DNA from: a virus
Lineage: Duplodnaviria > Caudoviricetes
Length of the DNA stretch: 63,582 bases
Virus record (IMG/VR): IMGVR_UViG_3300036846_000316
Location: 1-63,582 of that record
Strand: one strand, 5' to 3'
A program made the translations under genes and the position numbers. Below the pieces are notes generated by a model. That model worked only from the letters and a program-made list of their open reading frames with translations, was not told the origin of the DNA and ran no database searches. Below, piece by piece: positions 918 through 62,100 of this stretch (its first letter is position 1; each line of letters opens with the position of its first letter).

Positions 918-1202
918 ATGTGCGACATAGACGATACCGACAACACGATGTTCGCCCTGACGTGGCACGGGCGCGGGGGCCCCCTGTACTGGTCCACGCA
1001 CAAGGGATGGACGCCTGACGTAGACAAGGCGTGGGTGCTGTCGGCCGTGCTGGTCGACAGTATCGAGGCAGACGACAAGCTGATGAGTATGTTGCCGCAA
1101 CACAAGGAGCGGCGAGACGGGGCGAACTGGGAACCCATCTATCTTCGGTTAGCGCATCACGCCCCGGGCGTGACCGATGATGACTTCATGGAGAATAGAT
1201 AA
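918..1202 (+). CDS. Hypothetical protein
   Basis: AGGAG RBS; stop overlaps next start; carries a palindrome copy (HAPGVT). Confidence 0.6.
   Translation: MCDIDDTDNTMFALTWHGRGGPLYWSTHKGWTPDVDKAWVLSAVLVDSIEADDKLMSMLPQHKERRDGANWEPIYLRLAHHAPGVTDDDFMENR
1157..1173. repeat. 17-bp palindrome TCACGCCCCGGGCGTGA (copy 1)
   Basis: Exact match; near the 3' end of ORF 918-1202, upstream of the next RBS. Confidence 0.95.
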
Positions 1203-1648
1203 TGGCAAAAGGTATGTACGATCTTCCGGTAAGCGACGCCAAGCGAGACTTGGTGGTGCATCTCACAGACGCCGACGTGAAGGGAAGCAAGCGTGCCGAC
1301 CAAGACTACTGCGCGGTCGCGAACGCTCTCTGTCGGCAAGAGCACTTCAAGACCGCAAGGGTGCACAAGGGCGTGACCTACGTCATGAAGACGGACGGCA
1401 CGGTCGACCGCTACATCACACCGCGAGACCTGTACATCGAACTGATGATCTTCGACCGTGGGGGGAAGATGGAAGCGAGGGACTACAAGCTGCAAGCACC
1501 GCGAGGGAGCAAGCGGCTTGGCCATCACGAGAAGCCCAAGGGCAAGAAGGGCAAGACAGGCAAGCCCTCGAAGATCGTCCATCTCGTCAAGTCAGTCCGC
1601 GAGGATGCGCCGAAGGGCATCAAGTCGCTGCAGTCGTTGTTCGAGTGA
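1202..1648 (+). CDS. Hypothetical basic protein
   Basis: 148 aa, GGAG RBS, phage-like codon usage. Confidence 0.7.
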   Translation: MAKGMYDLPVSDAKRDLVVHLTDADVKGSKRADQDYCAVANALCRQEHFKTARVHKGVTYVMKTDGTVDRYITPRDLYIELMIFDRGGKMEARDYKLQAPRGSKRLGHHEKPKGKKGKTGKPSKIVHLVKSVREDAPKGIKSLQSLFE

Positions 1649-2205
1649 CGGCGGATCGGCGAGCGGACCATGTGTGGAACTACACGGGTCCGCTGGCCGA
1701 GGCGGAGAAGAACCCGGAGTTGGTTGACACGATCATTGTCAACTATCTCCGGGCTGGCGGTGTGCCAGATGCCGAAGCTCTCGCCATGGTCGAAGCTGAA
1801 CGAAAGAAGGTCAATGAAAGGGTGGCTGCATATGGAAAGGTCACGCGTACGAAAGGAACACAAGCTGTGCATGGTCTGCAACAAGAGGTACTTCACGGGG
1901 GCGATGCTCATCTTCGTGGGAAAGGCCCCCGCCGAAGAAAAGGCATGGGGGCTATGCCCCGCCCACCGGAAGCTAAGAGAGCGCAATCTGATCGCACTCG
2001 TCGAAGTCGATCCGACCAAGTCGATGCCGACCAGCTTCGACACGATGCTGCCGGACCAAGCCCAACGAACGGGACTGGTGATCTACCTGTCCCGTTCGAT
2101 CTTCAACCTGATCTTCCAAGGCGAGCCACCCGACAGCGGCGTGGCCTTCGTGCCGCCGGAAGTGGTAGCAATCCTGCAGAAGATTAAGCAAGGCGGCACT
2201 CAGCA

Positions 2206-2234
2206 TTGACATCGCCGTTCGTGGGGGGCAAACT
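2206..2234 (+). promoter_or_regulatory. Putative sigma70 promoter
   Basis: TTGACA-17 nt-CAAACT upstream of the AGGAG RBS of ORF 2253. Confidence 0.4.
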
Positions 2235-2252
2235 TCAACTAGGAGTATAGTC

Positions 2253-2498
2253 GTGCCACTAACAACTCACGTAGAGTTCGAGGCATCGTTCGTCGGCCGA
2301 CCGGGTGACGCCCGGGACAAGGCCGCCGAGAGCATCGTGCACATGTACGACGGCTCGATACTGGGAGCGGGAACGTTCCTGCCAGAAAGCATACGCGACC
2401 TCCAGATCAGGGTGCCGCGTATCCACGAACGCCATCTCAAGGACGCCCTGCGCAAGGCCGGGCTGAAAGTCGAGGACGCGTTCACGCCCCGGGCGTGA
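2253..2498 (+). CDS. Hypothetical protein
   Basis: AGGAG RBS, GTG start; its stop codon is the TGA of palindrome copy 2. Confidence 0.6.
   Translation: MPLTTHVEFEASFVGRPGDARDKAAESIVHMYDGSILGAGTFLPESIRDLQIRVPRIHERHLKDALRKAGLKVEDAFTPRA
2482..2498. repeat. 17-bp palindrome (copy 2)
   Basis: Exact; supplies the stop codon and is followed by CAGGAGG RBS. Confidence 0.95.
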
Positions 2499-2509
2499 CA
2501 GGAGGCGTA

Positions 2510-2929
2510 ATGACCACGCTCATGGAGGTAGTAAGACCGATGCTGTTACCAGACCCGTACGACGCCGACTGGGACTTGTGCCTAGCCGCGTATCGCTTCA
2601 ACCGAACAGTCTGCATGAACAGGCTGTACAACGTCGCCCGCCAGTTGACCAAGCTGGAGGATCGCGTCGCCGAGATCGAGGATCGCGGCGGCCCAACACC
2701 GGACGAGGACCGCGAGGTCACTGACCGGCTCAGGGTGCAGAACATCCTGCAGAATATCGACCGGCAGGCCCTCGTTGGCCTGCGGTTCTATCTCGACCTC
2801 GCCCGAGTGGTCCACAAGAAGGCCGACCGGGGGTCGTACGAACTGATCTACCGCAATGCGCGCGACCACGGCATCCCACCCTACCTCACGCGCAAGATGC
2901 TGGACGAGACCATCAGCAGGAACAACTGA
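2510..2929 (+). CDS. Hypothetical protein
   Basis: AGGAGG RBS before ATG 2510; coiled-coil-like segment. Confidence 0.65.
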   Translation: MTTLMEVVRPMLLPDPYDADWDLCLAAYRFNRTVCMNRLYNVARQLTKLEDRVAEIEDRGGPTPDEDREVTDRLRVQNILQNIDRQALVGLRFYLDLARVVHKKADRGSYELIYRNARDHGIPPYLTRKMLDETISRNN

Positions 2930-3183
2930 TGGGCCGATCCAAACGCGACACGGTCGTCATCGTTCGCGATGTGGCCAAGGCGATGGGGGCAACTGTGCTG
3001 GAAGTGAAGAAGTCGTTACGGCATCCGGGCATTCGTCTCCGCACCGCTGAAGGTGTCGAGTTTTGGATGCGAGTAAGCCAAGGCAAGGTCGAGCCCTACA
3101 AACAACGGGGCTGGGTCCGCCAAGCTATCCGACGTGCCAACAAGCGAAAGGCTAACGACAATGGAGTTGAGCCGAATTATTGA
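2929..3183 (+). CDS. Hypothetical basic protein
   Basis: TGATG coupling with the upstream gene. Confidence 0.55.
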   Translation: MGRSKRDTVVIVRDVAKAMGATVLEVKKSLRHPGIRLRTAEGVEFWMRVSQGKVEPYKQRGWVRQAIRRANKRKANDNGVEPNY

Positions 3184-4285
3184 GTTGCTTCCGCACTACA
3201 TCACGGCGGGCGTCTGCATCGAGATACGCGGACGCTCCGGCATCGGCAAGACGGACATGGTTCGCCAGTTCGTCTTCGACCAGAACCGACGCTCCGGCAA
3301 AAGCTGGGGCATCGGTGCACACTTCGCGGCAACGTGGACGCCGCCCGACGTGACGGGGTACCTGATGCCCCGCACGGTCAAGGTCACCATGCCGGACGGC
3401 ACCGTGCAGGAGCAGACCATCTCCGAGTGGTCGGCTCCGGTATGGCTGCGTGCCGACCCCGGCCAGCAGTCGACGTGGCTCAACGACTACGACGTCCCGG
3501 TGCTGGTGTTCGAGGAGTTCGACAAGGCGAACCCCGAGGTCAAGAAGGCAGCAGCACCAGTCATCCTGTATGGGGGGATTGGCAACTGGTACCTCAAGCG
3601 CGGAGCCGCTCGCATCCTGCTGACCAACCACGCCGACGATGGACGGCAGGGCTCGACCAAGGAGTTCGACTTCATCATCAACAGGAAGGTGCTGTTGAAC
3701 GCGACCCAGACCGTTGCTGCGTGGATGGACTGGGCCGACAAGAACGACGTCCACCCGATGTTCAAGGCGTTCGCCGAGCAGCATCCGGCGGTCGTGTTCG
3801 GAGGCGACCTGCCGGAGAAGCAGGGCCCGTACTGCACGGCACGCTCGCTGGTGATGCTGGAGAGCGTGGCCAAGCAAGGGATGATGACGCTGGATGGCGC
3901 GCTCACCCATCCCGAGGACTTCAACGAGACGGCGGCTGGTGCGATTGGTGCGCCTGCCGCGCGTGACCTTGTGACGTTCCTCAAATTCAAGGACGACATC
4001 CCCGACTGGGCGGACATCGTGCGCAGCCCAAGCCGGGCCAAGGTGTCCAGCAATGCCGGGGCACAATTGATGGCGGCGCACTTCGCCGCCTACAACGTCG
4101 ACGACAAGACCATCGAGCAGGGCGTGACCTACGTCAAACGCCTGCGCCCCGAGTTCCACATCACGTTCGCCAAGGCTGCGGCCCGCCGCAACTTCCGGCT
4201 GGTCAACAGCAAGCCGTTCGCGAAGTGGACCAACGATCAACCTGAACTGGTCGCCCTGATCAACGCATTGGGAGGAGCCCGCTGA
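3161..4285 (+). CDS. MoxR-like AAA+ ATPase
   Basis: Walker A GRSGIGKT, Walker B LVFEEFD; DUF2201/vWA partner gene downstream. Confidence 0.85.
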   Translation: MELSRIIELLPHYITAGVCIEIRGRSGIGKTDMVRQFVFDQNRRSGKSWGIGAHFAATWTPPDVTGYLMPRTVKVTMPDGTVQEQTISEWSAPVWLRADPGQQSTWLNDYDVPVLVFEEFDKANPEVKKAAAPVILYGGIGNWYLKRGAARILLTNHADDGRQGSTKEFDFIINRKVLLNATQTVAAWMDWADKNDVHPMFKAFAEQHPAVVFGGDLPEKQGPYCTARSLVMLESVAKQGMMTLDGALTHPEDFNETAAGAIGAPAARDLVTFLKFKDDIPDWADIVRSPSRAKVSSNAGAQLMAAHFAAYNVDDKTIEQGVTYVKRLRPEFHITFAKAAARRNFRLVNSKPFAKWTNDQPELVALINALGGAR

Positions 4286-4485: not shown

Positions 4486-4487
4486 TG

Positions 4488-4504
4488 TCACGCCCCGGGC
4501 GTGA
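4488..4504. repeat. 17-bp palindrome (copy 3)
   Basis: Exact; 2 bp after a stop codon. Confidence 0.95.
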
Positions 4505-4513
4505 TCTACTGCT

Positions 4514-6219: not shown

Positions 6220-7512
6220 ATGACAACCCAAGGCAGAGGCATGCTCAAGCGGATCAAGCTCGATCCATCGCAGCGCCGCTACTGGCAGGATACGTTGGCG
6301 GCACTCAGTTGGATCGCGCCGGGCTTCGTGCATGTGATCTATACCATGCTGAACAACACGGGCGACGACGACGTCGCGCTGTTCACCGAGGACGGCATCA
6401 TGGCCAACCACACGGGGGCGACCGATGGCTGGCAATTGATCTTCAATCCCACACGGTTCTTCAAGTATGACCTGATGGAGCGCTGCTTCATCGTCCTGCA
6501 TGAGGTCATGCATGAAGCGCTCAACCACGTCCGCATGGGCTACCACTTCAAGCAACGCGGCGTGATCACAGTCGGCGGCAAGTCGCTGCCGTACAGCCAC
6601 GACTTCGCCAACATGATGCAGGACTACGTGATCAACGCCATCCTCGTCGCATCGAAGCTGGGCAAGTTCAACAAGGACTGGCTGCTCAACACCGGCATCG
6701 CCGACGAGAACTCGACGTGGATCGAGACCTACTTCAAGCAATGGGTGAACGTGAAGGTCCTGACGGTTAACGTGAACCTGAACGGCGGCGTCTACTGGGG
6801 ACAGATCGGCGTCCATCTCGATCCGCACCAGACCAGCGGCAAGGAGGAAGTCCCGGCGCGCAACGATCAGGCGTGGGAGATCGTCATGAACCAAGCGGCC
6901 GAGATACAGCGGGCGCAGGGCAAGATGCCTGCGGCGCTGCAGCGGTTCTTTGACAGCATCCTCAAGCCCAAGGTCGACTGGACCGACCATGTGCGCGGGC
7001 ACATCACCCGCATCATGGGCTCCGGCGCGTACGACTTCCGCAGGCTCGACCGGCGGCTGGTCACACGCGGCGTCGGCGCACCGGGCATGAGCGGTCACGG
7101 GGCCGGGCTGGTGGTGATCGGCGGCGACACGAGCATGAGCGTGTTCGCGTCGGCCGACCGGGTGCACCGCTGGATCGGCGAGATCGCCGGGATGATCGAG
7201 GACGTGCAGCCCGAGGAGACGCACGTCGTATGGTGCGATACCGTGGTCAAGCGGGTCGACATCTGCACCGACGTGACCGACGTCCGGCACATGATCTATC
7301 GCGGCATCCCCGGCGGCGGCGGCACGATCTTCATGCCGGTCTTCAAGTACATCGAAGACAACGACCTGCGTCCTGATGTACTCCTCTACTTGACAGATGG
7401 TGACGGCACGTTCCCAAAGCACGAGCCCGACTATCCAGTGATCTGGGGAGACATCAGTGGCGAAGCGCAAAAATACCCGTTCGGTTCAGTCGTTCATATC
7501 CCGGGAGATTAA
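6220..7512 (+). CDS. DUF2201-type metallopeptidase plus vWA domain protein
   Basis: HEVMH zincin motif; DTSMS MIDAS-like motif, GGGGTIF and LYLTDG vWA motifs. Confidence 0.88.
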   Translation: MTTQGRGMLKRIKLDPSQRRYWQDTLAALSWIAPGFVHVIYTMLNNTGDDDVALFTEDGIMANHTGATDGWQLIFNPTRFFKYDLMERCFIVLHEVMHEALNHVRMGYHFKQRGVITVGGKSLPYSHDFANMMQDYVINAILVASKLGKFNKDWLLNTGIADENSTWIETYFKQWVNVKVLTVNVNLNGGVYWGQIGVHLDPHQTSGKEEVPARNDQAWEIVMNQAAEIQRAQGKMPAALQRFFDSILKPKVDWTDHVRGHITRIMGSGAYDFRRLDRRLVTRGVGAPGMSGHGAGLVVIGGDTSMSVFASADRVHRWIGEIAGMIEDVQPEETHVVWCDTVVKRVDICTDVTDVRHMIYRGIPGGGGTIFMPVFKYIEDNDLRPDVLLYLTDGDGTFPKHEPDYPVIWGDISGEAQKYPFGSVVHIPGD

Positions 7513-8136: not shown

Positions 8137-8153
8137 TCACGCCCCGGGCGTGA
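8137..8153. repeat. 17-bp palindrome (copy 4)
   Basis: Exact; abuts the HTH gene stop, followed by CAGGAGG RBS. Confidence 0.95.
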
Positions 8154-9196: not shown

Positions 9197-11059
9197 ATGC
9201 CGCAATCACGCCCCGGGCGTGACGACTTAGAATTTTGGTTCGTCGACTTCGAGACATTTTACTCATCCGATTACACACTGCGCTCGCTCGATCCTCCCAG
9301 TTACATTCTGGACCCCCGCTTTGAGGCGATCTGCCTCGGCGCGGCACGCGGCTTCACCGAGCCGCCCCGGATCGTCGACGGCCCAGACATCCCCCACTTC
9401 CTCGCCAACCTGCCACCCAACGTGGCGATGTGCTCGCACAACGCCCTGTTCGACATGGCCATCCTGTCATGGGTCTACGGCTACGTGCCGAAGCTGATCG
9501 TCGACACCTTGGCGATGGCCCGCACCCTGCTGGCGCACATCCTGAAGCGGCTCGATCTCGGCACCATCGCCCGGCACATCGGGCTGGTGAAGGGCGACAT
9601 GGTGCAGAAGGTCAAGGGCATGACCCGCGCCGACATCATCGCCAACGGCCTGTGGGATGACGAGGTCTCCTACTGCCTGCAGGACACTGCGATCTGCCGC
9701 GCCATCTTTCTCCACCTGCTGCCGCTGCTGCCGCCCGAGGAACTGATCCTGCACGACATCATTGCTAGGTGCACAATAGAACCGGCACTCAGGCTCGATG
9801 TCGATCTGCTGTACCAGCATCTCGGCGAAGTCCAATGGGACAAGCAAAAGCTGTTCATGCACGCGATGTTCGCCGGGCTGGAGGACAAATCCCAACTCAT
9901 GAGCAACCAGCAGTTCGCCGAACTGCTGCGCAACTATGGCGTCGAGCCACCGATGAAGGTCAGCAAGTCGACCGGGCTGATGACCTTCGCCTTCGCCCGC
10001 ACTGATCCGGCCTTCCTCGAACTGATCGACCACGAAGACCCGCGCGTCGGTGCGCTGGTCGAGGCAAGGCTGGGCCACAAATCCACCATCGAAGAGACGC
10101 GCACCCAGCGCATGCTCAACATCGCTTCGCTCGACTTCCCCCACCATGGCGGCACGGGCGTGATGCCGATCCCGCTGATCGTCGGCGCGGCGCACACCCA
10201 TCGGCTGGGCGGCGGCTGGAAGCTGAACTGCCAGAACTGGGGGCGCACGTCGCCGATCCGCAAGTCGATCAAGGCACCGCCCGGCCATAAGCTGGTGGTT
10301 GCCGATGCCCGCCAGATCGAGTGCCGGACCAACGCCGAGTTCTGCCATCAGGAGAACTTGCTGGAGGAGTTCCGCCGCAACGAGGACGTCTACCTCAACT
10401 TCGCCAACGAGATCGGCGTGATCCGCTTCATCGGCAAGATCGGTGTTCTCCAACTCGGATATCAGGCGAGCGGCGGCCGGTTCCAGCAAAGCGTGTGGGT
10501 CGAGAGCTTCAAGGCGGGCGGCGATCCGGTGTGGCTCGACGACATCGAGAGCGAGCGCGTGGTGCAGGGGTTCCGCCGCCGCTACAGCCGCATCAGGGAC
10601 ATGTGGTACTGGCTGCCGCGCATGTTCGGTATCCTCGCTGGCCACGCCCCGCCGGTCGAGTACGGGCCGATCCGGTTCGAGAAGGGCCGCATCGTCGGAC
10701 CGACCGGGCTGTGTCTGTACTATCCGAACATGCGCTACGAGGACGGAGAATGGTTCTTCGACCAAGGTGGCGTGAAGACCAAAATTTATGGCGGCAAGAT
10801 GCTGGAGAACATCATCCAGTTCCTCGCCCGGTGCAACACGATGTCAGTTGCCGTGCGGCTCAAGAAGCCGCTGCTGGAACATAGTTCCCGCTTGACACAT
10901 ACATCCCATGACGAGTTAGTATACGCCGTGCCGGACAGGTTCGTAGACACGGTCAAGCCAATCATCCACGCCGAAATGTGCCGCCCCCCGCTCTGGATGC
11001 CGACCATCCCGCTCGACTGCGAGATCGGCGTCGGCGATACCTACGGAGAAGCCAAGTGA
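9197..11059 (+). CDS. Family A DNA polymerase with 3'-5' exonuclease
   Basis: Exo I DFETF, Exo II HNALFD, Exo III YCLQD; motif A DARQIECR, motif B RFIGKIGVLQLGY, motif C SHDEL. Confidence 0.93.
   Translation: MPQSRPGRDDLEFWFVDFETFYSSDYTLRSLDPPSYILDPRFEAICLGAARGFTEPPRIVDGPDIPHFLANLPPNVAMCSHNALFDMAILSWVYGYVPKLIVDTLAMARTLLAHILKRLDLGTIARHIGLVKGDMVQKVKGMTRADIIANGLWDDEVSYCLQDTAICRAIFLHLLPLLPPEELILHDIIARCTIEPALRLDVDLLYQHLGEVQWDKQKLFMHAMFAGLEDKSQLMSNQQFAELLRNYGVEPPMKVSKSTGLMTFAFARTDPAFLELIDHEDPRVGALVEARLGHKSTIEETRTQRMLNIASLDFPHHGGTGVMPIPLIVGAAHTHRLGGGWKLNCQNWGRTSPIRKSIKAPPGHKLVVADARQIECRTNAEFCHQENLLEEFRRNEDVYLNFANEIGVIRFIGKIGVLQLGYQASGGRFQQSVWVESFKAGGDPVWLDDIESERVVQGFRRRYSRIRDMWYWLPRMFGILAGHAPPVEYGPIRFEKGRIVGPTGLCLYYPNMRYEDGEWFFDQGGVKTKIYGGKMLENIIQFLARCNTMSVAVRLKKPLLEHSSRLTHTSHDELVYAVPDRFVDTVKPIIHAEMCRPPLWMPTIPLDCEIGVGDTYGEAK
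9206..9222. repeat. 17-bp palindrome (copy 5, in the polymerase N-terminus)
   Basis: Exact; read as SRPGRD. Confidence 0.95.
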
Positions 11060-11341: not shown

Positions 11342-11358
11342 TCACGCCCCGGGCGTGA
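11342..11358. repeat. 17-bp palindrome (copy 6)
   Basis: Exact, intergenic. Confidence 0.95.
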
Positions 11359-11434: not shown

Positions 11435-12151
11435 ATGAGCACCACAACCTTCGACGGCCGACCTATCGAGAAGCCGTTCGCGTGGTCGTTCAGCGCGCTC
11501 GACAACTTCGAGACATGCGCTAAGAAGTACTACCACGGCAAGATCAAGAAGGACTTCCCCGACAAGCCCGGACCCGACGCGTCGTGGGGTCTCAAGGTAC
11601 ATGCCGCGATGGCCGACCGGATCATGAAAGCGAAGCCGTTGCCCGACGGCATGCAGCAGTGGGAGAAGTGGGCGGACTGGGCGATGGAGAACAGCGACCG
11701 CACGCAGGTGATCATGCGCTGCGAGCACAAGCTGGCTGTTACCGAACGCCTGCAACCCTGCGAGTACTTCGACAAACAGTTACAGCCGTGGTTCCGCACC
11801 GTGGCCGACGTGATCAAGATCAGGATGCCGTACCTCAGGATCATCGACTGGAAGACCGGCAACTTCAAGGAAGGCAGCGACCAGCTTCTGCTCACCGCCG
11901 CCACCGCGTTCGCCCACTATCCCGAGGCGACGCATGCCCTTTGCCAGTTCGTCTGGCTGAAGGACGACCTCAAGACCGAGGAACTGTTCGCCCGCTCCGA
12001 GATGCCCTACCTGTGGGCACGTTACGCCCCGCGCGTGACAAGGATGAAGGAAGCGGCGCTGACCAGCGAATATCCCCCCAACCCGAGCGGCCTATGCAAA
12101 CGCCACTGCCCGGTGACTTCATGCCCCTACTTCGGCAAAGGGTCCTACTGA
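11435..12151 (+). CDS. PD-(D/E)XK (Cas4/RecB-like) exonuclease
   Basis: WSFSAL..FETC, GLKVH, ADV...IIDWKTG, C-terminal CKRHCPVTSC cluster. Confidence 0.85.
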   Translation: MSTTTFDGRPIEKPFAWSFSALDNFETCAKKYYHGKIKKDFPDKPGPDASWGLKVHAAMADRIMKAKPLPDGMQQWEKWADWAMENSDRTQVIMRCEHKLAVTERLQPCEYFDKQLQPWFRTVADVIKIRMPYLRIIDWKTGNFKEGSDQLLLTAATAFAHYPEATHALCQFVWLKDDLKTEELFARSEMPYLWARYAPRVTRMKEAALTSEYPPNPSGLCKRHCPVTSCPYFGKGSY

Positions 12152-15691: not shown

Positions 15692-18600
15692 ATGTCGGAT
15701 ATCGCCAAATTTCTGGCACGCGTAGTGCCGTGGCCATCGGCGTCGGTGGCGGGCTTCGTCAACGTCCACTGGCCGTTCATTGGTCGAGACGGTAAAGACC
15801 ATTGGGCCGGACAGGCGTTCACCGACCAGCAGACGGCGACGAAGTACGTCAACGGCATGTTGCGGAACAGCAAGGACCTGTTCCTGTGCATGAGCCTGCA
15901 GCGCAACGCCCAGCAGCAGAAGCCTAACGCTCAAGGGAAGCTGCGCCGGAAGGCGGTTCGAGCCAGTGCGAACGCCATCTTCCTACGGGCGTTCTGGCTC
16001 GACGTCGATCTGTGGAAGCCGGGCGACCTCAACGATAAGAAGTATCGCACTACTGACGAAGCGCTGAAGGCGTTTGTCGAGTGGCGTCAGAAGACTGGCT
16101 TACCGCCTGTCAGTCTGATCGTGTTCACTGGCTCTGGTGGTTTCCATGTCTACTGGGTGCTGCACGAGCCGATCACGGTCGAGGCGTGGCAGCCCATCGC
16201 CGAGGCGCTGAAGGCCGCCTGCCAGCAGGGTGGGTTCGAGGCGGATCACGGTCGCACCGCCGTCCCGGCGCAGGTGCTGCGCATCCCCGGCACCAGCAAC
16301 CACAAACATAACCCTCCGCGTCTAGCGGTAATCGCGCACGAGGGACCAGACATCGCGCTGGCCGACATCGAGACGCCGCTGTTGACTTATAAGTCAACTC
16401 ACGCCCCGGGCGTGACATTCGTCAATCCCCGTCAGATGTCGTTAAAACTCGGCAGCATCTCCCCGGCGTTCGCGGGCGTCACCCTGCCCGGCCGCCTCGA
16501 TGCCGGGCTCGACGCCTACGTGCCGACCATCGAAGAAGTCGCCGACGAGTGCCCGTGGGTCGACGCTCTGCTGCAGACCGGCGGCGCGCAGCGCGGCGAG
16601 AACGAATGGCGCGAGAGTTTGCGGGTCGCCTACTATGTGCAGGATGGAGCCGAGGTCGCGCACGAATTGAGCGACGGCCATGCGACCTACGCCGAGCAGG
16701 ACACCGACGCCAAGTTCGCTGCCATCGAGCACAGCCACGGCAACGGCCGGATCGGCTGGCCGCAGTGCCGCACGATCCACGATATAGGCGCTGGCGAATG
16801 CAAGTACTGTCCGCACCTACCTAAGGGCAAATCGCCGCTCAACTTCGCAATTCCCAAAGCCGTCGTCGCGGTTGCCGCTGCGACCGCAATTGCTGTTTCC
16901 CCCATAACGTCGGCCATGCCGACCCAGCCTGAGTGGTTGCCGCCGTCGTACTACCATGACGCAAGGCGCTGTATCTTTCGGGAGATCGAAGACCCGAAGG
17001 AAGAAGGCAAGTTGCTCCGCAATGAAATCTTCCCCTTGCCGCTCTATAACTTCCACGTCTACGACAAGGCGGCGGTCGGCGGCAGGCATGTACTGGACTT
17101 CGATTGCGCGGTCACGTCGATTATAATTAGGAGGGTAGAGGCAATTAGCTTCACCGATATGATCGACCTTCGTAAGTTGGGAGAGAAGCTGACCGACTAC
17201 GGCATCCCTGCGCTCCCGCACCAACTCCAAGATTTGAGGACGTTCATGGTCTCGTTCGTGCAGAAACTGGAGCAGGCCAAAGGTCGGGTCACAATCTACC
17301 GTAGCGCGCCATTCGGCTGGCTGGAAGTCGACAGAAAGGTCGCTGGCTTCGTCTATAACCGCAAGCTGTTCAATAGCAAGGACCCGGTTCCGATCCAACC
17401 ACTGCGGTCGGTGGCGGGCATGGCCTACGAGCCAACCGGCGATCTGGCGGCGTGGAAGAACGTCATGAAGTTGATCACCGATCAGAAGCGGCCAGAACTG
17501 ATCGTGCCGATCTGCGCCAGCATCGGCACCCCGTTGCTTCCTATGACAGGCATCGACGGCGCGGTTCTTCACCTGTGCGGCCCTAGTGGCAGCGGCAAAT
17601 CCCGAGCCTTGCAGTCCGCACAGTCGGTCTGGGGGAGCCCAGCGAAGATCAGCAACTATGATGACACGGTGGCCAACATCGACCTCAAGCTGCAGCAATT
17701 GCACAACTTGCCCAAGGTCTACGATGACGTGTCCTTGACCATGGACAAGAAGCTGATCGGCCTGTTCATGCGTGTCAGCATGGGCGTAGGCCGGGGTAAG
17801 GCGCAGCGCAGCGGGCAAGACATCGCCGAGAGCCACGATTGGTGCACGCTGATGATATCGGCATCGAACCTTGAAGTGCATGCCCACATCAATGAGTTCG
17901 AGACGACCAACGTCGCCGCGATGAACCGAGTGTTCGAGTACCATGTCGGGAAGAACAAAAGCCGGTTCGGCATGCTCGACACGGGCTCCGAGGCGGAGCG
18001 CATGTATGCTTTGCTGAAGCGAAACTATGGTGTCGCCGGATTGGAGATTGCCAAGTATTACGGCAACAACCATGACAACCTCGACATGGTCGTCGCCAAG
18101 CTGTGCCAGATGGTCCACCAGCGCGGGCAATGCGGGGACGACGACCGCTACTACATTCCGATCATCGCAGTATCTCTTGCTGGTGCGCTCGTGGGCACCA
18201 AGTTGGGGTTGATCGACGTGGATACAGATCAGTTGGAAGGTTTCCTGATCGAGCAACTGCAGGAGCAGCGACGGCAGCGTAAGTCGTCGTCTAGCAATCT
18301 CACCGAACAGGCGAACGTCGAGGGGTTGATCAGCGAGTTTGTGAAATCCTGCCGCGACCGGACCCTGATCAGTGACACGGTCTGGACCCTCCAGTCACGT
18401 CCGCCGACTACCTACAAGCCGACTTGGCTCAATCAGTTTGACTTCAAAGGCCAGCAGATCGACGTTCGCGTCGCGCGCGACGACAAGATCGTCCGGGTGT
18501 CGATGCCCGCGCTGAATGACTGGCTGAAGAAGAACAGGCACATGACCGTCGGCAACCTCAAGCCCGCCATCAAAATGCTGATGCCGAACACGCGCATCAG

Positions 18601-18694
18601 CCAGTTCGATCTTGGCCACGGTTTCAAGAACCTCCAGCAGCCGCGCATCTGGTGCCTTGAGATCGTCGACCCGACCTTCTGGGACTTCAACTAG
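15692..18694 (+). CDS. Primase (AEP/RepB-like) fused to DUF927-type helicase/ATPase
   Basis: WLDVD, TGSGGFHVYW, LRIPGT primase motifs; CxxC region; Walker A GPSGSGKS. Confidence 0.85.
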   Translation: MSDIAKFLARVVPWPSASVAGFVNVHWPFIGRDGKDHWAGQAFTDQQTATKYVNGMLRNSKDLFLCMSLQRNAQQQKPNAQGKLRRKAVRASANAIFLRAFWLDVDLWKPGDLNDKKYRTTDEALKAFVEWRQKTGLPPVSLIVFTGSGGFHVYWVLHEPITVEAWQPIAEALKAACQQGGFEADHGRTAVPAQVLRIPGTSNHKHNPPRLAVIAHEGPDIALADIETPLLTYKSTHAPGVTFVNPRQMSLKLGSISPAFAGVTLPGRLDAGLDAYVPTIEEVADECPWVDALLQTGGAQRGENEWRESLRVAYYVQDGAEVAHELSDGHATYAEQDTDAKFAAIEHSHGNGRIGWPQCRTIHDIGAGECKYCPHLPKGKSPLNFAIPKAVVAVAAATAIAVSPITSAMPTQPEWLPPSYYHDARRCIFREIEDPKEEGKLLRNEIFPLPLYNFHVYDKAAVGGRHVLDFDCAVTSIIIRRVEAISFTDMIDLRKLGEKLTDYGIPALPHQLQDLRTFMVSFVQKLEQAKGRVTIYRSAPFGWLEVDRKVAGFVYNRKLFNSKDPVPIQPLRSVAGMAYEPTGDLAAWKNVMKLITDQKRPELIVPICASIGTPLLPMTGIDGAVLHLCGPSGSGKSRALQSAQSVWGSPAKISNYDDTVANIDLKLQQLHNLPKVYDDVSLTMDKKLIGLFMRVSMGVGRGKAQRSGQDIAESHDWCTLMISASNLEVHAHINEFETTNVAAMNRVFEYHVGKNKSRFGMLDTGSEAERMYALLKRNYGVAGLEIAKYYGNNHDNLDMVVAKLCQMVHQRGQCGDDDRYYIPIIAVSLAGALVGTKLGLIDVDTDQLEGFLIEQLQEQRRQRKSSSSNLTEQANVEGLISEFVKSCRDRTLISDTVWTLQSRPPTTYKPTWLNQFDFKGQQIDVRVARDDKIVRVSMPALNDWLKKNRHMTVGNLKPAIKMLMPNTRISQFDLGHGFKNLQQPRIWCLEIVDPTFWDFN
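16399..16415. repeat. 17-bp palindrome (copy 7, inside the primase gene)
   Basis: Exact; directly preceded by a second perfect palindrome at 16381-16398. Confidence 0.95.
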
Positions 18695-19850: not shown

Positions 19851-20063
19851 TCAGTCTCCCTTGTCGACGCAGTGGCAGCCGACGTGCGTACCCCCAATTG
19901 ATATCGCATACTTAGACCCGACGTTCCACTCGATCACGTTGCACTTGACCTCGTGCTCACACTTCAGGGTCGGCGTGACCTGCACCACGTCGACCTGCTT
20001 GGAACAGCCAGCGAGCATCAGCATGATCACGCCCCGGGCGTGACTAAGGGCTTTTCTTCCCAC
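19851..20063 (-). CDS. Possible small Cys-rich lipoprotein (start uncertain)
   Basis: MLMLAGC lipobox-like sequence. Confidence 0.4.
   Translation of the reverse strand: MGRKALSHARGVIMLMLAGCSKQVDVVQVTPTLKCEHEVKCNVIEWNVGSKYAISIGGTHVGCHCVDKGD
20027..20043. repeat. 17-bp palindrome (copy 8)
   Basis: Exact; abuts the stop of ORF 20044-20244. Confidence 0.95.
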
Positions 20064-36262: not shown

Positions 36263-36279
36263 TCACGCCCCGGGCGTTA
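36263..36279. repeat. 17-bp palindrome variant (copy 10)
   Basis: TCACGCCCCGGGCGTTA; includes the TAA stop of the upstream gene and lies 1 bp before the next ATG. Confidence 0.9.
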
Positions 36280-41086: not shown

Positions 41087-41103
41087 TCACGCCCGGGGCG
41101 TGA
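41087..41103. repeat. 17-bp palindrome (copy 11), extended to GGGA-...-TCCC
   Basis: Between the major capsid stop and the fibre start. Confidence 0.95.
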
Positions 41104-47479: not shown

Positions 47480-47496
47480 TCACGCCCCGGGCGTGA
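47480..47496. repeat. 17-bp palindrome (copy 12)
   Basis: Exact; between the TerS stop and the TerL RBS. Confidence 0.95.
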
Positions 47497-53318: not shown

Positions 53319-53335
53319 TCACGCCCGGGGCGTTA
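53319..53335. repeat. 17-bp palindrome variant (copy 13)
   Basis: TCACGCCCGGGGCGTTA; includes the upstream TAA stop and ends 1 nt before the tRNA 5' end. Confidence 0.9.
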
Positions 53336-54728: not shown

Positions 54729-54745
54729 TCACGCCCGGGGCGTGA
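54729..54745. repeat. 17-bp palindrome (copy 14)
   Basis: Exact (G-centre); in the divergent intergenic region. Confidence 0.95.
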
Positions 54746-54809: not shown

Positions 54810-55601
54810 ATGTCTAAGGTTGTTAAGAAGTCTGCAAAGAAGATTGATCACGCCCCGGGCGTGACGGACGCCCCGCACATGAAGAACGTTGTGCTGACCG
54901 CTCCCGTTGGCATCGCTGGCATTGTGCCAACGAAGCCTGTCACGAACATGGAAGGCGGTTCGCTCGTCAAGGCGATTGCCAACGATGCGAAGATACAGAT
55001 TGCGCAAGGCAAGAACGCGCTTCTCCGCATGGCTCCCTACATTTCGGCCGTTGCGGCGGGCGAGATCAAGGACATTGACGCGGATGCGAAACCGCTCCTG
55101 AACAAGGTGCGTGACGCTATCGTGGCTCATCGCGCGTCGCTTGTTCCGCCGGATACGCGCGAGGTGGCGGAAGTGTCGACCACGCGCAGCGGCGAGTTTA
55201 AGCACGTTCTGCGCCTTGGCACGTACGCGTGCCACAAGGACGTTATCGCCATGTTTGACGGGTACGACGTCAATCTGGACAACGTCGTGACGATTGCGAA
55301 ATTCATTGCGGAGACCGTCAAGGAAAAGAACGGTCCGGCCCCCGCACGCGAGGCGGTCTTTGCCAAGCTTGCGGAACGCAAGGGTTCGCGTCGTGGTTCG
55401 GAAGGCATGGCGGGTGACGAAGCCCAACCGACGAAGCCTGCAGGTGCCGTGCTGAAAGGCATCGGCAAGCGCGTCGACGGTTGGCGCTTGTGGTTCGGGC
55501 TTCCGAACGCGAGCAAGGTCAAGGACGAAGCATCCGCCAAGCTTGACGAACTGAAGGGTTTGCTGGCCAGCATTGAACGCTTGGCCAAGGCGGTACCCTG
55601 A
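54810..55601 (+). CDS. Hypothetical Lys/Ala-rich protein, monocistronic
   Basis: AAGGA RBS, own terminator, many T-ending codons. Confidence 0.75.
   Translation: MSKVVKKSAKKIDHAPGVTDAPHMKNVVLTAPVGIAGIVPTKPVTNMEGGSLVKAIANDAKIQIAQGKNALLRMAPYISAVAAGEIKDIDADAKPLLNKVRDAIVAHRASLVPPDTREVAEVSTTRSGEFKHVLRLGTYACHKDVIAMFDGYDVNLDNVVTIAKFIAETVKEKNGPAPAREAVFAKLAERKGSRRGSEGMAGDEAQPTKPAGAVLKGIGKRVDGWRLWFGLPNASKVKDEASAKLDELKGLLASIERLAKAVP
54848..54864. repeat. 17-bp palindrome (copy 15, in CDS)
   Basis: Exact; read as HAPGVT. Confidence 0.95.
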
Positions 55602-55696: not shown

Positions 55697-55713
55697 TCAC
55701 GCCCCGGGCGTGA
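55697..55713. repeat. 17-bp palindrome (copy 16)
   Basis: Exact, intergenic. Confidence 0.95.
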
Positions 55714-56942: not shown

Positions 56943-56959
56943 TCACGCCCGGGGCGTGA
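56943..56959. repeat. 17-bp palindrome (copy 17)
   Basis: Exact (G-centre), intergenic. Confidence 0.95.
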
Positions 56960-59110: not shown

Positions 59111-59133
59111 CCTCGAACGTTGCGCCCCGGGCA

Positions 59134-59150
59134 TCACGCCCGGGGCGTGA
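59134..59150. repeat. 17-bp palindrome (copy 18), preceded by a partial copy
   Basis: GCGCCCCGGGCA then TCACGCCCGGGGCGTGA. Confidence 0.95.
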
Positions 59151-59306: not shown

Positions 59307-59516
59307 ATGAGAAGCATCCGGCCACCGCACTTCGACATATGGTTCTGGCTACTGGTCGTGTGGTCGTTCCTCGTGCCGTACCTCTATGACGCGGGTCACG
59401 CTCGAAGCTGTAGCGAACGTGGTCAGGTCACGTTCTACACCATCACGTCGTGGTGGACCGACGACGAGATCACGACGTTCAAGTGCAGCCCGGCACCGCA
59501 GGGAGAACAGCTATGA
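59307..59516 (+). CDS. Small membrane protein
   Basis: Hydrophobic N-terminal segment. Confidence 0.5.
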   Translation: MRSIRPPHFDIWFWLLVVWSFLVPYLYDAGHARSCSERGQVTFYTITSWWTDDEITTFKCSPAPQGEQL

Positions 59517-59729
59517 ACTGGATCGTTGAGATACTGTGGGCCATCGAACTGCACATCATGTTCAAGCGCTGGCTCGACATCCGCAAGATCGACAAGTCGT
59601 GGCTTGACGACCTCGACATGCGGCGAACGTGGGTACGCATGAACATGCGCTTGGGCGATCACGCATCGCACAGGATCACGGCACTCAGGCAATCTGGCGC
59701 AACGCCGTGCATCAAGGGAGGAGACGACG

Positions 59730-59930
59730 ATGAACCAAGAGTTGGTCGGCAAACGCATTCGACTGACAGCGATGGTCGATCTTGATCCGATCCCGGTCGG
59801 CAGTGAAGGCGAGGTCACATGGGTCAACCGTGTGCCGTCGCTCGGCTTCACCCAGATCGCGGTGAAGTGGGACAATGGCAGGACGCTGATGCTCAGCATC
59901 CCGCCCGACAAGTACGAGGTCGTGCCATGA
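59730..59930 (+). CDS. DUF4314-like SH3-fold protein
   Basis: G.RIRL..M.D..PIP.G..G.V..V.....QI.V.WDNG..L.L. Confidence 0.75.
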   Translation: MNQELVGKRIRLTAMVDLDPIPVGSEGEVTWVNRVPSLGFTQIAVKWDNGRTLMLSIPPDKYEVVP

Positions 59931-60066
59931 AGGAATTGATCATGACGGCGTTGACGTTGGTAGCGTTCTGGTTGCTTGCCGAAGCGATAGACCTGATGTC
60001 ACCGACGCCGAGCCGCGTGATCAGCGACGTCGAGCCGGTGGCATTCATCAAGCAAGGGAGCAACTG

Positions 60067-60294
60067 ATGAACTATCTTTTATGGCTTGGTTTTTGGATCA
60101 TCGTTGCGGTGATCGTCGACCTGCGGTCGAACCGGAAGCATCGACTGCCGCCACCTCCTGCGCCGCCTGCGCAGCCGTACCAACCGACCTTCGGTCCGCC
60201 GGGTCGCTACGTGCACAAGGGCAATTACCACAACCGATACTGGACATCGGGCAATCTCAACAAGATCGCCCCATGGGAAAATCACAAACGTTGA
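60067..60294 (+). CDS. Small membrane-anchored protein
   Basis: N-terminal TM segment, Pro-rich linker. Confidence 0.55.
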   Translation: MNYLLWLGFWIIVAVIVDLRSNRKHRLPPPPAPPAQPYQPTFGPPGRYVHKGNYHNRYWTSGNLNKIAPWENHKR

Positions 60295-60348
60295 CGCCGT
60301 CGCCGTACGGCGACGATGTAACAACGGCGCGGACAGCGCCCGGGGCAA

Positions 60349-60365
60349 TCACGCCCGGGGCGTGA
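60349..60365. repeat. 17-bp palindrome (copy 19), preceded by a partial copy
   Basis: CGCCCGGGGCAA then TCACGCCCGGGGCGTGA. Confidence 0.95.
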
Positions 60366-60417
60366 CGTGAGTAGCGTAAGCGTACAGCGTACCAACCTCA
60401 AAATGTGGAGTGTCAAA

Positions 60418-60942
60418 ATGTGTGAAGGTTCGATCCATGTCGCACACCGGCAGGCCAAGGAACAGGAGACCTTGGTCGTGCAGACGATCCCCCACCACGG
60501 GATCAAGGGCTACTACCCGGCCGATGGCCAGCCCAACAGCAAGCTGGTCTGCATCCGGGGCATCACCAAGGACGCCGTGATCCACGAACTGCGGATCATG
60601 GAAGGTCAGCGCTGCCCGCGCGGCTTCGAGAAGTATGTCGGGCAGAAGAACCTCAAGGTCACGCTGATCCATGCGGGCTACGCCGACTGGATCGTGTTCG
60701 GTGACGACAACGTCAACGATGCGAATAAGCGGCTCGCGCTCGGCTTCGTCGCCGACGGCGTGCGCGTCGACATCGGCATCCCGGCGATCACCGGGGACAA
60801 GGGCGTCGACGCGGTCAAGGCCGCGCTCGTCGAGCAGGACAAGATCGGCGTCGAGAAGACCGGTCTCAGCATGACCGCGAACGCGATCCGCAAGCGGCTC
60901 GCGCGGTTCAATGCCAAGGTCAAGGCGCAGGCCAAGGTCTAG
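60418..60942 (+). CDS. Hypothetical protein
   Basis: GGAG RBS before MCEGS. Confidence 0.7.
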   Translation: MCEGSIHVAHRQAKEQETLVVQTIPHHGIKGYYPADGQPNSKLVCIRGITKDAVIHELRIMEGQRCPRGFEKYVGQKNLKVTLIHAGYADWIVFGDDNVNDANKRLALGFVADGVRVDIGIPAITGDKGVDAVKAALVEQDKIGVEKTGLSMTANAIRKRLARFNAKVKAQAKV

Positions 60943-60956
60943 CACTCAAACGCGAT

Positions 60957-60985
60957 GGGTGGGGCGGCTTCGGCCGCCCCATTCA
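60957..60985 (+). terminator. UUCG-loop hairpin, terminator-like
   Basis: TGGGGCGGC-TTCG-GCCGCCCCA; weak U-tract. Confidence 0.55.
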
Positions 60986-61050
60986 TTAGAAACTGACTTG
61001 CATATGAATACTAATGTAGTAATATCCAGTCACTCAAACGGAGGACGACA

Positions 61051-61890
61051 ATGTCAGTGGCCAAGGCACACGCGGCGATGACCAGCCCACTATCGACCCC
61101 GTCACCGCACGACAATCTCGAACCCTTCAGGCAAAGCTTCTTCGACCAGTGTGAACAGTTCGGCAGCAACGCCGGGGCAGGTGACACGTCGAAGGTTGGC
61201 TGGTTTCAGGCGACATGTGAAGCGGCGTGGCAAGGCTACGTGTCGCCGGGCGCGCGCCGCAAGCCGGGCGATCCGCCCAACGATGCCGAGATCGCCTACA
61301 CGCGCTACGCCAACGCCCGCCAGAAGAAAGCGGGCGAGTTGGGCCGCAAGCTGCAGGGTGCCGATCCCAAGAACACCGACTATCGTACGCGGGTCAACGA
61401 AGCCAACACCATGATCAAGCTGGGCTCGATGCCAATCATCCACGACACCGATCAGGGTGGGCTGGGCGTGTTCAATCGCACGCTGCAGATCATCCGCACG
61501 ACCGAGGAGATCAAGGGTCAGGTCGACGACATGCTGCTCAACATTGCGCGCGCCCAGTTCGACAAGCCCGACGTGCCGCTCAATGACGACGAGATCAGGC
61601 AGGTGCTGATCCCCGAGAAGGAGGACGACAAGCCGCCGACGCCCGAGGTCGAACTGTGGGGTAACGTGATGCGCCAGATCGAGAGCATCATGCACAAGAA
61701 ATTCCCCGAGACGTCGGGCACCAGTCAGGATGCCAAGACGGCACTCAATGCCACGATCCGCCAGATCGACAAGCTGGGTGGCACGGCGGCCATGGCCAAG
61801 GCGCGCGCCAAGGCGGCAGAGAAGGACGCCAAGGACAAGGCGGCGCGGCAGGTGCAGCGGCAAGGCGCGCGAAAAGGTAAAAAGAAGTAA
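61051..61890 (+). CDS. Hypothetical protein with basic C-terminus
   Basis: GGAGG RBS; AT-rich promoter-like sequence at about 60998-61025. Confidence 0.75.
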   Translation: MSVAKAHAAMTSPLSTPSPHDNLEPFRQSFFDQCEQFGSNAGAGDTSKVGWFQATCEAAWQGYVSPGARRKPGDPPNDAEIAYTRYANARQKKAGELGRKLQGADPKNTDYRTRVNEANTMIKLGSMPIIHDTDQGGLGVFNRTLQIIRTTEEIKGQVDDMLLNIARAQFDKPDVPLNDDEIRQVLIPEKEDDKPPTPEVELWGNVMRQIESIMHKKFPETSGTSQDAKTALNATIRQIDKLGGTAAMAKARAKAAEKDAKDKAARQVQRQGARKGKKK

Positions 61891-61892
61891 CG

Positions 61893-62100
61893 AGGTCTGA
61901 CGCCCGTCCGCCTACAGACGGACAGACCAAGCAATGCCCGGCTGGGGATAAGACCGAGAAGCCGGGTGTGGATGGGGGTGGCGAGTAGCCGTCTAAGGGG
62001 ATCACATCCCGATGACGTTAGCCACCCCCGTTCGTGGTCACGCACTCGGCGCAGGTATGCGCCGACGTGTACAACGGGGCGTTCACGCCCCGGGCGTGAC
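61893..62100 (+). ncRNA. Candidate structured non-coding RNA
   Basis: Four consecutive stem-loops in the intergenic gap; no family recognised. Confidence 0.35.
62083..62099. repeat. 17-bp palindrome (copy 20)
   Basis: Exact. Confidence 0.95.

Follow-up and report, generated by a model that had tools for sequence, protein, structure and literature searches.

The subject of this report is a 17-bp palindrome, TCACGCCCSGGGCGTGA, which is dispersed over the genome of a soil phage. The window analysed is the whole of IMG/VR virus record IMGVR_UViG_3300036846_000316, which is 63,582 bp long, is rated complete and derives from soil metagenomes. Family searches identify the phage as podovirus-like and reveal a head and packaging set comprising a major head protein, a portal/adaptor, a large terminase and internal virion proteins. 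The genome also encodes a replication set that includes a family A DNA polymerase, a PD-(D/E)XK nuclease, an SNF2 helicase and a 1000-amino-acid (aa) PrimPol-helicase. No near-identical phage was found when positions 1-20000 were compared by megablast with GenBank phages. The closest cultured relative is Rhizobium phage RHph_TM27A (portal identity 54%), which was cultured on Rhizobium phaseoli.

The palindrome and its copies

There are 18 exact copies of TCACGCCCSGGGCGTGA in the window, and there are none in 100 dinucleotide-preserving shuffles. When up to three mismatches are allowed, the total rises to 21 sites versus 0.83 expected, and the only additions are the copies at 12022 (two mismatches), 36263 and 53319 (one mismatch each). 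All of the exact and near copies listed in an earlier note on this DNA were therefore recovered. The motif has an 8-1-8 form, such that it is a perfect palindrome apart from its centre, which is always C or G and can take either orientation. A scan of the window for other spacings and shorter arms gave essentially no further variants, and thus the motif is rigid in this genome.

The 21 sites are given below without strand. G001 denotes a sister contig that is described in the next section, X1 denotes a sequencing run with Logan contigs, and distances to open reading frames (ORFs) and other features are in nucleotides (nt).

1157..1173: exact copy with centre C, inside the 3' end of ORF 918-1202 and 28 nt before the ATG at 1202; the G001 counterpart is ATACGCCCGGGGCGTAA.
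2482..2498: exact copy whose TGA is the stop of ORF 2253-2498; the next ATG is 11 nt on, after AGGAGG, and the G001 site matches.
4488..4504: exact copy, 2 nt past the stop of ORF 4285-4485.
8137..8153: exact copy that abuts the TGA of ORF 7822-8136 and is 12 nt before the ATG at 8166.
9206..9222: exact copy that forms codons 4-9 (S-R-P-G-R-D) of the DNA polymerase gene (ATG at 9197).
11342..11358: exact copy right after a terminator-like T-run, upstream of the PD-(D/E)XK nuclease gene.
12022..12038: copy with two mismatches, TTACGCCCCGCGCGTGA, within the nuclease gene; only half of it has switched, with TTAC still on the left and GTGA on the right, and the aligned place in G001 reads TTACGCCCCGCGCGTAA.
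16399..16415: exact copy inside the PrimPol-helicase gene; the G001 site is at offset +3.
20027..20043: exact copy between minus-strand genes, abutting the TAG stop of 20044-20244 and 2 nt before the ATG at 20024.
26248..26264: exact copy inside the gene for a 2755-aa virion protein; a G001 counterpart was not found.
36263..36279: one-mismatch copy whose TTA is the TAA stop of 36277-36813 (minus strand); the ATG at 36261 is 1 nt further on.
41087..41103: exact copy between the stop of the major capsid gene and the next gene, with an extended stem GGGA...TCCC.
47480..47496: exact copy between a TerS-like gene and TerL, 15 nt before the TerL start; the G001 site is 2 nt before its TerL.
53319..53335: one-mismatch copy whose TTA is the TAA stop of 53333-53869 (minus strand); a tRNA-His starts 1 nt after.
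54729..54745: exact copy in a divergent intergenic region; X1 contigs agree.
54848..54864: exact copy that forms codons 13-18 of ORF 54810-55601; X1 contigs agree.
55697..55713: exact copy right after a terminator-like hairpin with a T-run; X1 contigs agree.
56943..56959: exact copy, 10 nt past a stop and 21 nt before the ATG at 56981; X1 contigs agree.
59134..59150: exact copy, 22 nt before the ATG at 59173, with a degenerate partial copy upstream; X1 contigs agree.
60349..60365: exact copy, 37 nt before the ATG at 60403, with a degenerate partial copy upstream; X1 contigs agree.
62083..62099: exact copy, 33 nt before the ATG at 62133; X1 contigs agree.

These sites are strongly enriched at gene junctions, since 15 of the 21 are intergenic or located at gene ends in a genome with only about 7% non-coding sequence. 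Eleven sites lie 1-37 nt upstream of a start codon, one is 1 nt before the tRNA-His gene, and one (54729) occupies a divergent intergenic region. A terminator-like T-run precedes two sites (11342 and 55697). The six sites found inside genes are those at 1157, 9206, 12022, 16399, 26248 and 54848. Stop codons are contained in three sites (2482, 36263 and 53319), and the TTA ends of the latter two are indeed the TAA stops of minus-strand ORFs, as had been proposed. Another four sites are within 2 nt of a stop codon (4488, 20027 and 47480, together with 8137 if ORF 7822-8136 is real). The earlier note had stated that most copies abut or overlap a stop codon, which overstates these numbers, but the enrichment at gene junctions is real.

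The copies are not artefacts of an assembler. Logan contigs of run X1 span the seven sites from 54729 to 62083 (54729, 54848, 55697, 56943, 59134, 60349 and 62083) at a depth of approximately 110-175 and reproduce them letter for letter, with no differing letters. Run X1 may be the source sample of the window, and this agreement consequently represents another assembler rather than an independent sample. A second run, X2, contained only a diverged relative at low depth and was not used.

The sequences that flank the copies are mostly unrelated, as had been claimed, but there are exceptions. The copies at 11342 and 60349 have a common 3' flank, CGTGAGTA (11359-11366 and 60366-60373). In addition, a degenerate partial copy (GCGCCCSGGGCA) directly precedes the sites at 59134 (59120-59133) and 60349 (60335-60348).

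The motif is not an abundant repeat in the bacterial genomes searched. There are at least 120 stretches of bacterial genomes that carry the exact motif, and these are scattered over many phyla. Among the 80 stretches listed, 79 have a single copy and one has two copies. By our own arithmetic, a few hundred matches would be expected by chance in the 596 Gb of bacterial sequence scanned. The exact motif is absent from all 400 of a further set of Alphaproteobacteria genomes, and the related pattern TTACC-N6-GGTAA has zero or one copy in each of five alphaproteobacterial genomes. Only one other IMG/VR contig contains the exact motif, again as a single copy. The possibility that the array is an ordinary host repeat is therefore not borne out by any of the bacterial genomes searched.

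Dialects in related phages

Sister contig G001 is collinear with the window, with a DNA identity of 65-82% and a DNA polymerase that is 81% identical. It carries 17 exact copies of TTACGC-N5-GCGTAA, most of which read TTACGCCCSGGGCGTAA, and the number increases to 26 when variants are included. None has the TCAC/GTGA ends that are characteristic of the window. There are 12 window sites for which a G001 site is located no more than 50 bp from the expected place, and for six of these the alignment runs through the site. A 13th match, at 47480, is established by gene context because both sites are just before TerL. At every matched site, positions 2 and 16 are T:A in G001 and C:G in the window, wherein TTAC/GTAA is exchanged for TCAC/GTGA. 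The alignment of orthologous genes recommended earlier thus finds 12 window sites occupied at corresponding places, but in another version, or dialect, of the motif.

The switch extends into protein-coding sequence. The site in the polymerase gene encodes S-R-P-G-R-D in the window, whereas the corresponding G001 sequence, TTACGCCCTGCGCGTAA, encodes L-R-P-A-R-N, so that S..D is exchanged for L..N. The site at 12022 is half-switched, and those at 36263 and 53319 retain their TAA stop. The centre base also differs between window site 1157 and its G001 orthologue. These observations indicate in-place rewriting of the sites and hence point to a trans-acting reader with an altered specificity.

There are also approximately 11 one-sided variants on the plus strand of G001, located between 19429 and 32641 and at 58148. 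They end in GCGTAT, GCGGAA or GCGTAC and keep one arm perfect. All of them deviate on the same strand, and relative to the direction of the genes around them this is the 5' arm.

Judged from such comparisons, the window motif is one dialect of a dispersed dyad, TTAC-N7-9-GTAA, that is found family-wide. Among eight relatives that were fetched, including RHph_TM27A, there are 18-69 copies per genome of roughly 60 kb. The counts at spacings N7, N8 and N9 are 14, 32 and 1 in RHph_TM27A, 1, 0 and 17 in G001, 19, 49 and 1 in G003, 42, 15 and 0 in G004, 2, 47 and 0 in G005, 20, 0 and 0 in G006, and 12, 6 and 1 in G007. The reversed motif, which served as a control for these per-genome counts, gives 0-2 matches per spacing. 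Relative G002 contributes 13 copies, at N8. In each relative, the place that follows the capsid gene has a palindrome of its own, and the outer TTAC...GTAA is common to many of them. The search of related phages that had been proposed for this motif thus uncovered separate dialects of the same type of dyad.

The cultured relative RHph_TM27A provides a well-populated example. There are 57 copies of GTTACC-N5/6-GGTAAC in its genome, of which 55 have at most one mismatch and two have both outermost bases changed. The reversed control, at no more than one mismatch, has no matches. Gene junctions hold 22 of the 57 sites and the other 35 are inside annotated genes. More generally, the arrays of this family include sites inside long genes as well as between genes.

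The pattern is also common in a wider collection of related sequences. Across 75 related loci (at least 8 kb each, 1.24 Mb in total), there are 922 matches to the TTAC pattern compared to 27 for the control. In contrast, the dyad is not enriched in five more distant phages (phiM6, CRP-212, CHOED, RHph_N3_13 and HMO-2011). A close relative, G413, whose DNA polymerase is 57-59% identical, has a very different 16-bp palindrome, TTCCTCGTACGAGGAA, with six copies versus 0.06 expected. These copies include positions 1018, 1107, 33705, 40046, 49937 and 53558. Within the subclade formed by the window phage, G001, G002 and G413, there are consequently four different dyads.

Sites are spaced more evenly than random placement would produce in all eight genomes, and this evenness is significant in four of them (G003, G005, G006 and G007). 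It is not significant in the window itself (p = 0.22).

The in-place changes bear on the view that the copies are a selfish or passive repeat, such as a miniature mobile element, a host repeat of the repetitive extragenic palindromic (REP) type, or recombination sites at the boundaries of gene cassettes. The copies are identical, and a degenerate partial copy stands beside two of them. Furthermore, deletions between repeats were seen in Cluster O mycobacteriophages, as described in the relevant section of that report (PMC4351075). However, the unit comprises only 17 bp, with no terminal repeats beyond itself and no target duplication, and its flanks are mostly unrelated. No transposase was found in protein scans of the window, and the motif is abundant in no bacterial genome searched. 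The sites are orthologous between phages and have been altered in place rather than moved. We therefore consider this explanation to be barely credible. The same features (unrelated flanks, no transposase found, and orthologous positions in G001) uphold the earlier judgement that the array is neither a miniature inverted-repeat transposable element nor a CRISPR (clustered regularly interspaced short palindromic repeats) array. With regard to CRISPR, the distance from one copy to the next ranges from 119 bp to 10 kb over the full genome.

A role in partition or condensation, with sites resembling parS, KorB operators or matS that organize or segregate the phage chromosome, can also be considered. 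As a palindrome with a central C/G that is dispersed over a replicon of approximately 60 kb, the motif is similar to the operators read by KorB on IncP plasmids and to the scattered centromere sites of N15, and its coverage is even. However, there is no ParA, ParB or KorB-like domain in the window proteins scanned (some small ORFs were outside these scans), and there is no sign of a plasmid-prophage lifestyle. The number of sites, up to 69 per genome, is far above that of known centromere arrays. This makes a partition function highly improbable.

Duplex recognition, hairpins and candidate readers

Relatives whose sites vary provide an opportunity to distinguish a site that is read as duplex DNA from one that folds as a hairpin. 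At variable arm positions, pairs compatible with Watson-Crick pairing are never in significant excess over what independent arms would produce (16 of 16 position-by-genome tests). Observed pairing is equal to or below expectation in 12 of the 16, as exemplified by position 6 of G003, where there are 13 pairs observed compared to 23.9 expected. Sense-strand mismatches likewise exhibit no preference, with 84 G·U and 87 C·A (p = 0.88). In RHph_TM27A, single uncompensated mismatches are common and include transversions in the middle of the would-be stem, but they never occur at positions 4-5. Positions that would form the loop are conserved as a symmetric Y/R sequence in G005.

The central C or G occurs in either orientation in both the window and G001, which is consistent with one duplex site being flipped. 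Independent arms, the lack of compensatory pairing and the lack of a G·U bias together suggest that the element is duplex DNA read by a symmetric protein rather than a hairpin. The earlier note had favoured a dyad for a dimeric protein maintained genome-wide, and this proposal is strengthened by the independent half-sites, by the C:G centre in either orientation and by the concerted switch in orthologues. The option of an RNA processing signal is disfavoured by the same covariation and mismatch results.

Four genes in the window have products that could be candidate readers or partners of a reader.

318..890, plus strand: OmpR/PhoB-type winged-helix protein, the only recognisable DNA-binding regulator found and a lineage-restricted candidate reader.
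3161..4285, plus strand: MoxR-class AAA+ ATPase with a NorQ/CbbQ-like fold, annotated as an ATPase by PHROG (predicted local distance difference test (pLDDT) of the model 86.5; NorQ E-value 1e-7).
6220..7512, plus strand: DUF2201 protein with a putative metallopeptidase domain and a VWA-like domain, the presumed partner of the ATPase.
15692..18694, plus strand: PrimPol-helicase that combines an AEP PrimPol with a helicase like those of SaPI Rep and Cch, a weakened candidate reader.

The winged-helix protein is not suitable as a conserved reader because it is present in only three of nine array genomes. TerS, which is 85% identical between two phages of different dialects, was also rejected. 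Indeed, TerS, the DNA polymerase, the SNF2 helicase, the nuclease, the ATPase and TerL are all 81-87% identical across the window and G001 dialects. Both the protein encoded at 318 and TerS had been put forward as binders, and both are poor candidates by these measures.

An association with the array was found for the genes of the ATPase and the DUF2201 protein. NorQ and CbbQ are MoxR-class partners of VWA proteins. In the presence/absence profile, only the ATPase and DUF2201 genes are present in nine of nine array genomes and in none of five others. Phage G007 has both the array and the gene pair, and it is placed amid sisters G414-G417 (major capsid protein identity 82-90%) that have neither. 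The TTAC array is present in 66 of 75 loci that carry the ATPase gene, and several of the other nine have a different dyad. Searches of PDB sequences with the ATPase and the DUF2201 protein gave nothing significant, and the model of the DUF2201 protein (mean pLDDT 62.3) is too poor for a fold search. The association causes us to consider the pair as a tentative candidate for the reader or its co-worker, as a lead rather than as proof.

Unlike its neighbours, the PrimPol-helicase is only 43% identical between the window and G001, and its allele looks either replaced or fast-evolving. This difference coincides with the dialect switch. One possibility is that the sites serve in loading or priming by this protein, as many small origins or as start signals for the lagging strand. 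The protein is related to the SaPI Rep and SCCmec Cch initiators, which read specific origin repeats, and at a palindrome two helicases would be loaded in head-to-head orientation. Spacing in several relatives is even and close to 1 kb, and five distant relatives lack both DUF927 and the array. However, G414-G417, which are complete, share the replication module and encode a full-length homologue, and yet they show no array (5-12 matches compared to 2-18 in the control). This weakens the case for the protein as the reader. Likewise, among 80 helicase-bearing loci there is a group, including several full-length homologues, that is without the dyad. A replication role of this type is therefore very unlikely.

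Another possibility is an operator network akin to stoperators or to conserved inverted repeats (CIRs), in which an immunity-type repressor silences or blocks transcription genome-wide and the dialects correspond to immunity specificities. Like stoperators, the sites are many, scattered and concentrated in short intergenic regions close to starts and stops, and close relatives have different dialects, as would be expected under heteroimmunity selection. A winged-helix protein is encoded by the window, and the sites at 54729 and 54848 stand on either side of the point where the first gene in the divergent early region starts. However, neither an integrase nor a recognisable, classical repressor is present among the approximately 64 window ORFs scanned, although small diverged regulators may escape such scans. 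The winged-helix gene is restricted as noted above, and many sites are deep in long genes and evenly spaced. The dyad is symmetric, whereas stoperators are asymmetric and oriented, and the bias towards a central C (14 of 18) is no rule. For the comparable repeat of Cluster O, the authors judged a transcriptional role unlikely in the section concerned (PMC4351075). We regard such a network as unlikely. None of the specific roles suggested by the earlier note, namely stoperator, parS or cassette exchange, has been confirmed.

The interpretation that we favour, at about an even chance, is that the palindrome is a duplex recognition site for a two-fold symmetric protein and that it is kept as a dispersed, genome-marking array. 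A dimeric or paired sequence-specific protein, presumably encoded by the phage, would bind the dyad on double-stranded DNA, and copies would be held at fixed orthologous places across the family. When the specificity of the reader changes, all sites would be switched (with C:G in place of T:A at positions 2 and 16), even where this alters amino acids. The weakest step of this proposal is that the reader may be, or may work with, the MoxR-type ATPase and the VWA/metallopeptidase protein.

We infer that the array provides genome-wide self-recognition, as an 'identity mark' at regular density, rather than a set of gene-by-gene operators. Perhaps the sites constitute a self-identity code, repeated every 1-3 kb in genes as well as in the gaps between them, that is read by a machine built around or served by the MoxR ATPase and the VWA/metallopeptidase protein. 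Such a machine would treat its own marked DNA differently from the DNA of the host or a rival, whether by sparing, replicating or packaging it. Competition among co-infecting relatives would then drive rapid dialect switches, after which every site would be rewritten, and the TCAC...GTGA of the window would represent a switch caught beside its TTAC...GTAA sister. This more elaborate proposal is speculative and, on balance, improbable.

Several observations weigh against duplex recognition by a symmetric reader. The gene map of the window, read with the site flanks, is our own codon-usage heuristic, and the tests that distinguish duplex from hairpin were run on relatives, with the window copies all being perfect. 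Within one and the same genome the half-sites may be separated by N7 or by N8, and this 1-bp variation would be unusual for a rigid dimer and would suit the loop of a hairpin. For the window motif as RNA, the predicted fold has a stem of 7 bp and a loop of 3 nt (-10.6 to -17.2 kcal/mol, z -3.5 to -5.1). Moreover, of the 18 sites to which a sense strand could be assigned, 14 have C as their central base on that strand; by hand the count is 15 of 20 (two-sided binomial approximately 0.04), and this bias hints at a strand-aware constraint. In some relatives, approximately one third of the sites are found 0-12 nt upstream of a start codon, a position that would also suit a role in translation. Regarding the reader, the link to the ATPase/VWA pair is confounded by shared ancestry and perhaps reflects one or two independent events. 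The MoxR ATPase fold is known from protein remodelling and not from DNA recognition. In addition, G413 has a dyad array of six copies but the pair is undetected in its record, which is 86% complete, and no reader was identified among the candidate proteins examined.

Some of these points would be accommodated by a hairpin in RNA or single-stranded DNA, which might stabilize 3' ends, guide processing or gate the translation of the next gene. The predicted stem-loop is stable, its loop length varies by 1 nt in relatives, and the central base is biased on the sense strand. Among the 21 sites, 12 are 1-37 nt before a start codon or tRNA, including one that abuts the tRNA. Some hairpin is found downstream of the capsid gene in every relative examined, where the extended stem differs and yet stays paired (GGGA/TCCC versus GGACC/GGTCC). 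However, compensatory covariation is seen in none of the 16 tests, G·U mismatches do not exceed C·A, transversions in the middle of the stem go uncompensated in RHph_TM27A, and the would-be loop is symmetric in G005. The 8-1-8 form of the window cannot pair fully as a hairpin, and the sense strand has CCCGG as the centre at some sites and CCGGG at others. Nor does the motif resemble an intrinsic terminator, as no T-run (or U-tract in the transcript) follows any of the 21 copies, and only one of the eight sites in 53000-63582 fits a loose terminator pattern, on the antisense strand. We thus judge a hairpin to be a distinctly unlikely primary function.

In relatives, sites near start codons have an arm, RRGGTAA, that doubles as a ribosome-binding-like element and a TAA stop. 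Intergenic copies show a similar reuse of the G-rich arm, whose TGA or TAA serves as a stop codon or which serves as a ribosome-binding-like element. We consider that both this reuse and the formation of hairpins in transcripts are secondary, or that they reflect the constraints under which a compact genome evolves.

Other genome features and known systems

There are several other features of the window that are separate from the array or merely adjoin it. Two of these are as follows.

53244-53317, minus strand: tRNA-His (anticodon GTG), the only Rfam match, which starts 1 nt after the motif copy at 53319.
20253-28520, minus strand: giant virion protein of 2755 aa, with no Pfam or PDB match.

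The tRNA-His is annotated without an extra 5' G, which is typical of Alphaproteobacteria and fits a rhizobial-type host. The C-terminal part of the giant virion protein is like viral hypothetical proteins only; among named clusters, the nearest have LPD38/LPD39 'polyvalent protein' domains. The idea that the giant protein is an RNA polymerase found no support, as there was no polymerase signature in Pfam, PDB, PHROG or Atlas searches. A protein of the N4 gp49 family is also encoded by the window phage.

The early region has canonical intrinsic terminators at 55612-55642 and 56571-56616, with 10- and 15-bp stems followed by T-runs, and these are separate from the palindrome. A promoter scan of 53000-63582 was uninformative, with two promoter-like matches compared to 2.8 expected. 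ORF 58485-59054 has a G+C fraction of 0.99 at first codon positions, which suggests a glycine-rich, repeat-like protein. Logan contigs have many alternative joints and inserted letters at approximately 58540-58950, and this region is therefore a repetitive stretch that varies in the population.

A possible precedent for the motif is provided by the hairpin promoters of phage N4. The N4 virion RNA polymerase uses three hairpin promoters at one end of the genome, each with a 5-7 bp stem and a 3-nt loop. The window motif can similarly form a 7-bp stem with a 3-nt loop, and both a giant virion protein and an N4 gp49-family protein are present. However, relatives exhibit no pairing constraint, the giant protein has no polymerase signature, and there are 20-70 sites throughout each genome.

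The KorB operators of IncP plasmids and the CIRs of Streptomyces phage phiC31 can also be compared. These sites are palindromic, 13-17 bp in length, and present in approximately 12-18 copies over 40-60 kb, and in each case they are served by one global DNA-binding reader. The readers are known to be a ParB-family protein and a phage repressor, respectively. In the window, a homologue of these readers is undetected in the scans, and relatives of the window phage have several times as many copies.

Chi sites and DNA uptake sequences offer another comparison. They occur approximately once per kb or few kb, are evenly distributed and also found in genes, have lineage-specific dialects, and distinguish own from foreign DNA. 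Unlike the mark in the window, which is a 15-17-bp dyad in a phage with a reader that is only putative, these words are short, asymmetric and chromosomal.

The stoperators of Cluster A mycobacteriophages are dispersed sites in short intergenic gaps whose specificity co-evolves with that of their reader, according to the passages of PMC9283540 and PMC6550527 that concern them. As described there, stoperators are asymmetric, are bound by a monomeric immunity repressor, are oriented with transcription and belong to temperate phages (PMC9283540, PMC6550527). In comparison, the window site is symmetric, a repressor or integrase was not found in the scans, and many sites are inside long genes. If the array were nevertheless an operator network, stoperator-like control would extend to a distant phage group. 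A self-recognition code, if that is what the array proves to be, would represent a new means by which a virus distinguishes its DNA from the DNA of its host and competitors, and would also demonstrate that a regulatory or identity word can override protein-coding constraints genome-wide.

The most similar arrangement is found in Cluster O mycobacteriophages, which have a 17-bp dyad repeat of 7-3-7 form, TGTTCGGNNNCCGAACA, with 34 copies in Corndog (PMC4351075). In the parts of that paper devoted to the repeat, its function is unexplained, a dimeric DNA-binding protein is proposed and a transcriptional role is judged unlikely (PMC4351075). Both systems consist of a 17-bp dyad in tens of near-invariant copies that are located between ORFs, near their 5' ends or inside them. 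Neither has a centre whose orientation follows transcription, and in both cases the motif is not a repeat of host genomes (for the present array, of those searched) and positions are conserved among relatives (PMC4351075, same sections).

The differences are also substantial. The two sequences are unrelated, the Cluster O phages are siphoviruses of Mycobacterium whereas those described here are podovirus-like phages of Alphaproteobacteria, and a 7-3-7 form is replaced by an 8-1-8 form. Dialect switching, spacing variants and a link to a gene pair are seen here, and none is reported for Cluster O in the sections concerned (PMC4351075). The family of the window phage also comprises many metagenomic lineages with different dialects. 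Hence, the likeness to Cluster O is one of kind only, as no homology of sequence or of phage is apparent.

The earlier note had called the array an undescribed system, which is too strong as a category given the Cluster O dyads (in the sections of PMC4351075 noted above) and the stoperators. However, this family's own array was not found in literature searches that used the motif letters, RHph_TM27A, DUF2201 and dispersed phage palindromes, with supplements being outside their scope. The array is real and more general than a single genome, and the interpretation that suits it best is a set of protein-binding sites on duplex DNA, with dialects specific to each lineage. Dispersed, near-invariant dyads in phages have been seen before, in Cluster O, but were never explained, and they have now become testable. 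There is a large natural family that includes the cultured RHph_TM27A, specificity switches have occurred between close relatives, and the list of candidate partner genes is short. These natural switches allow both swap experiments and covariation searches for the reader of a type of array that Cluster O had already brought to light.

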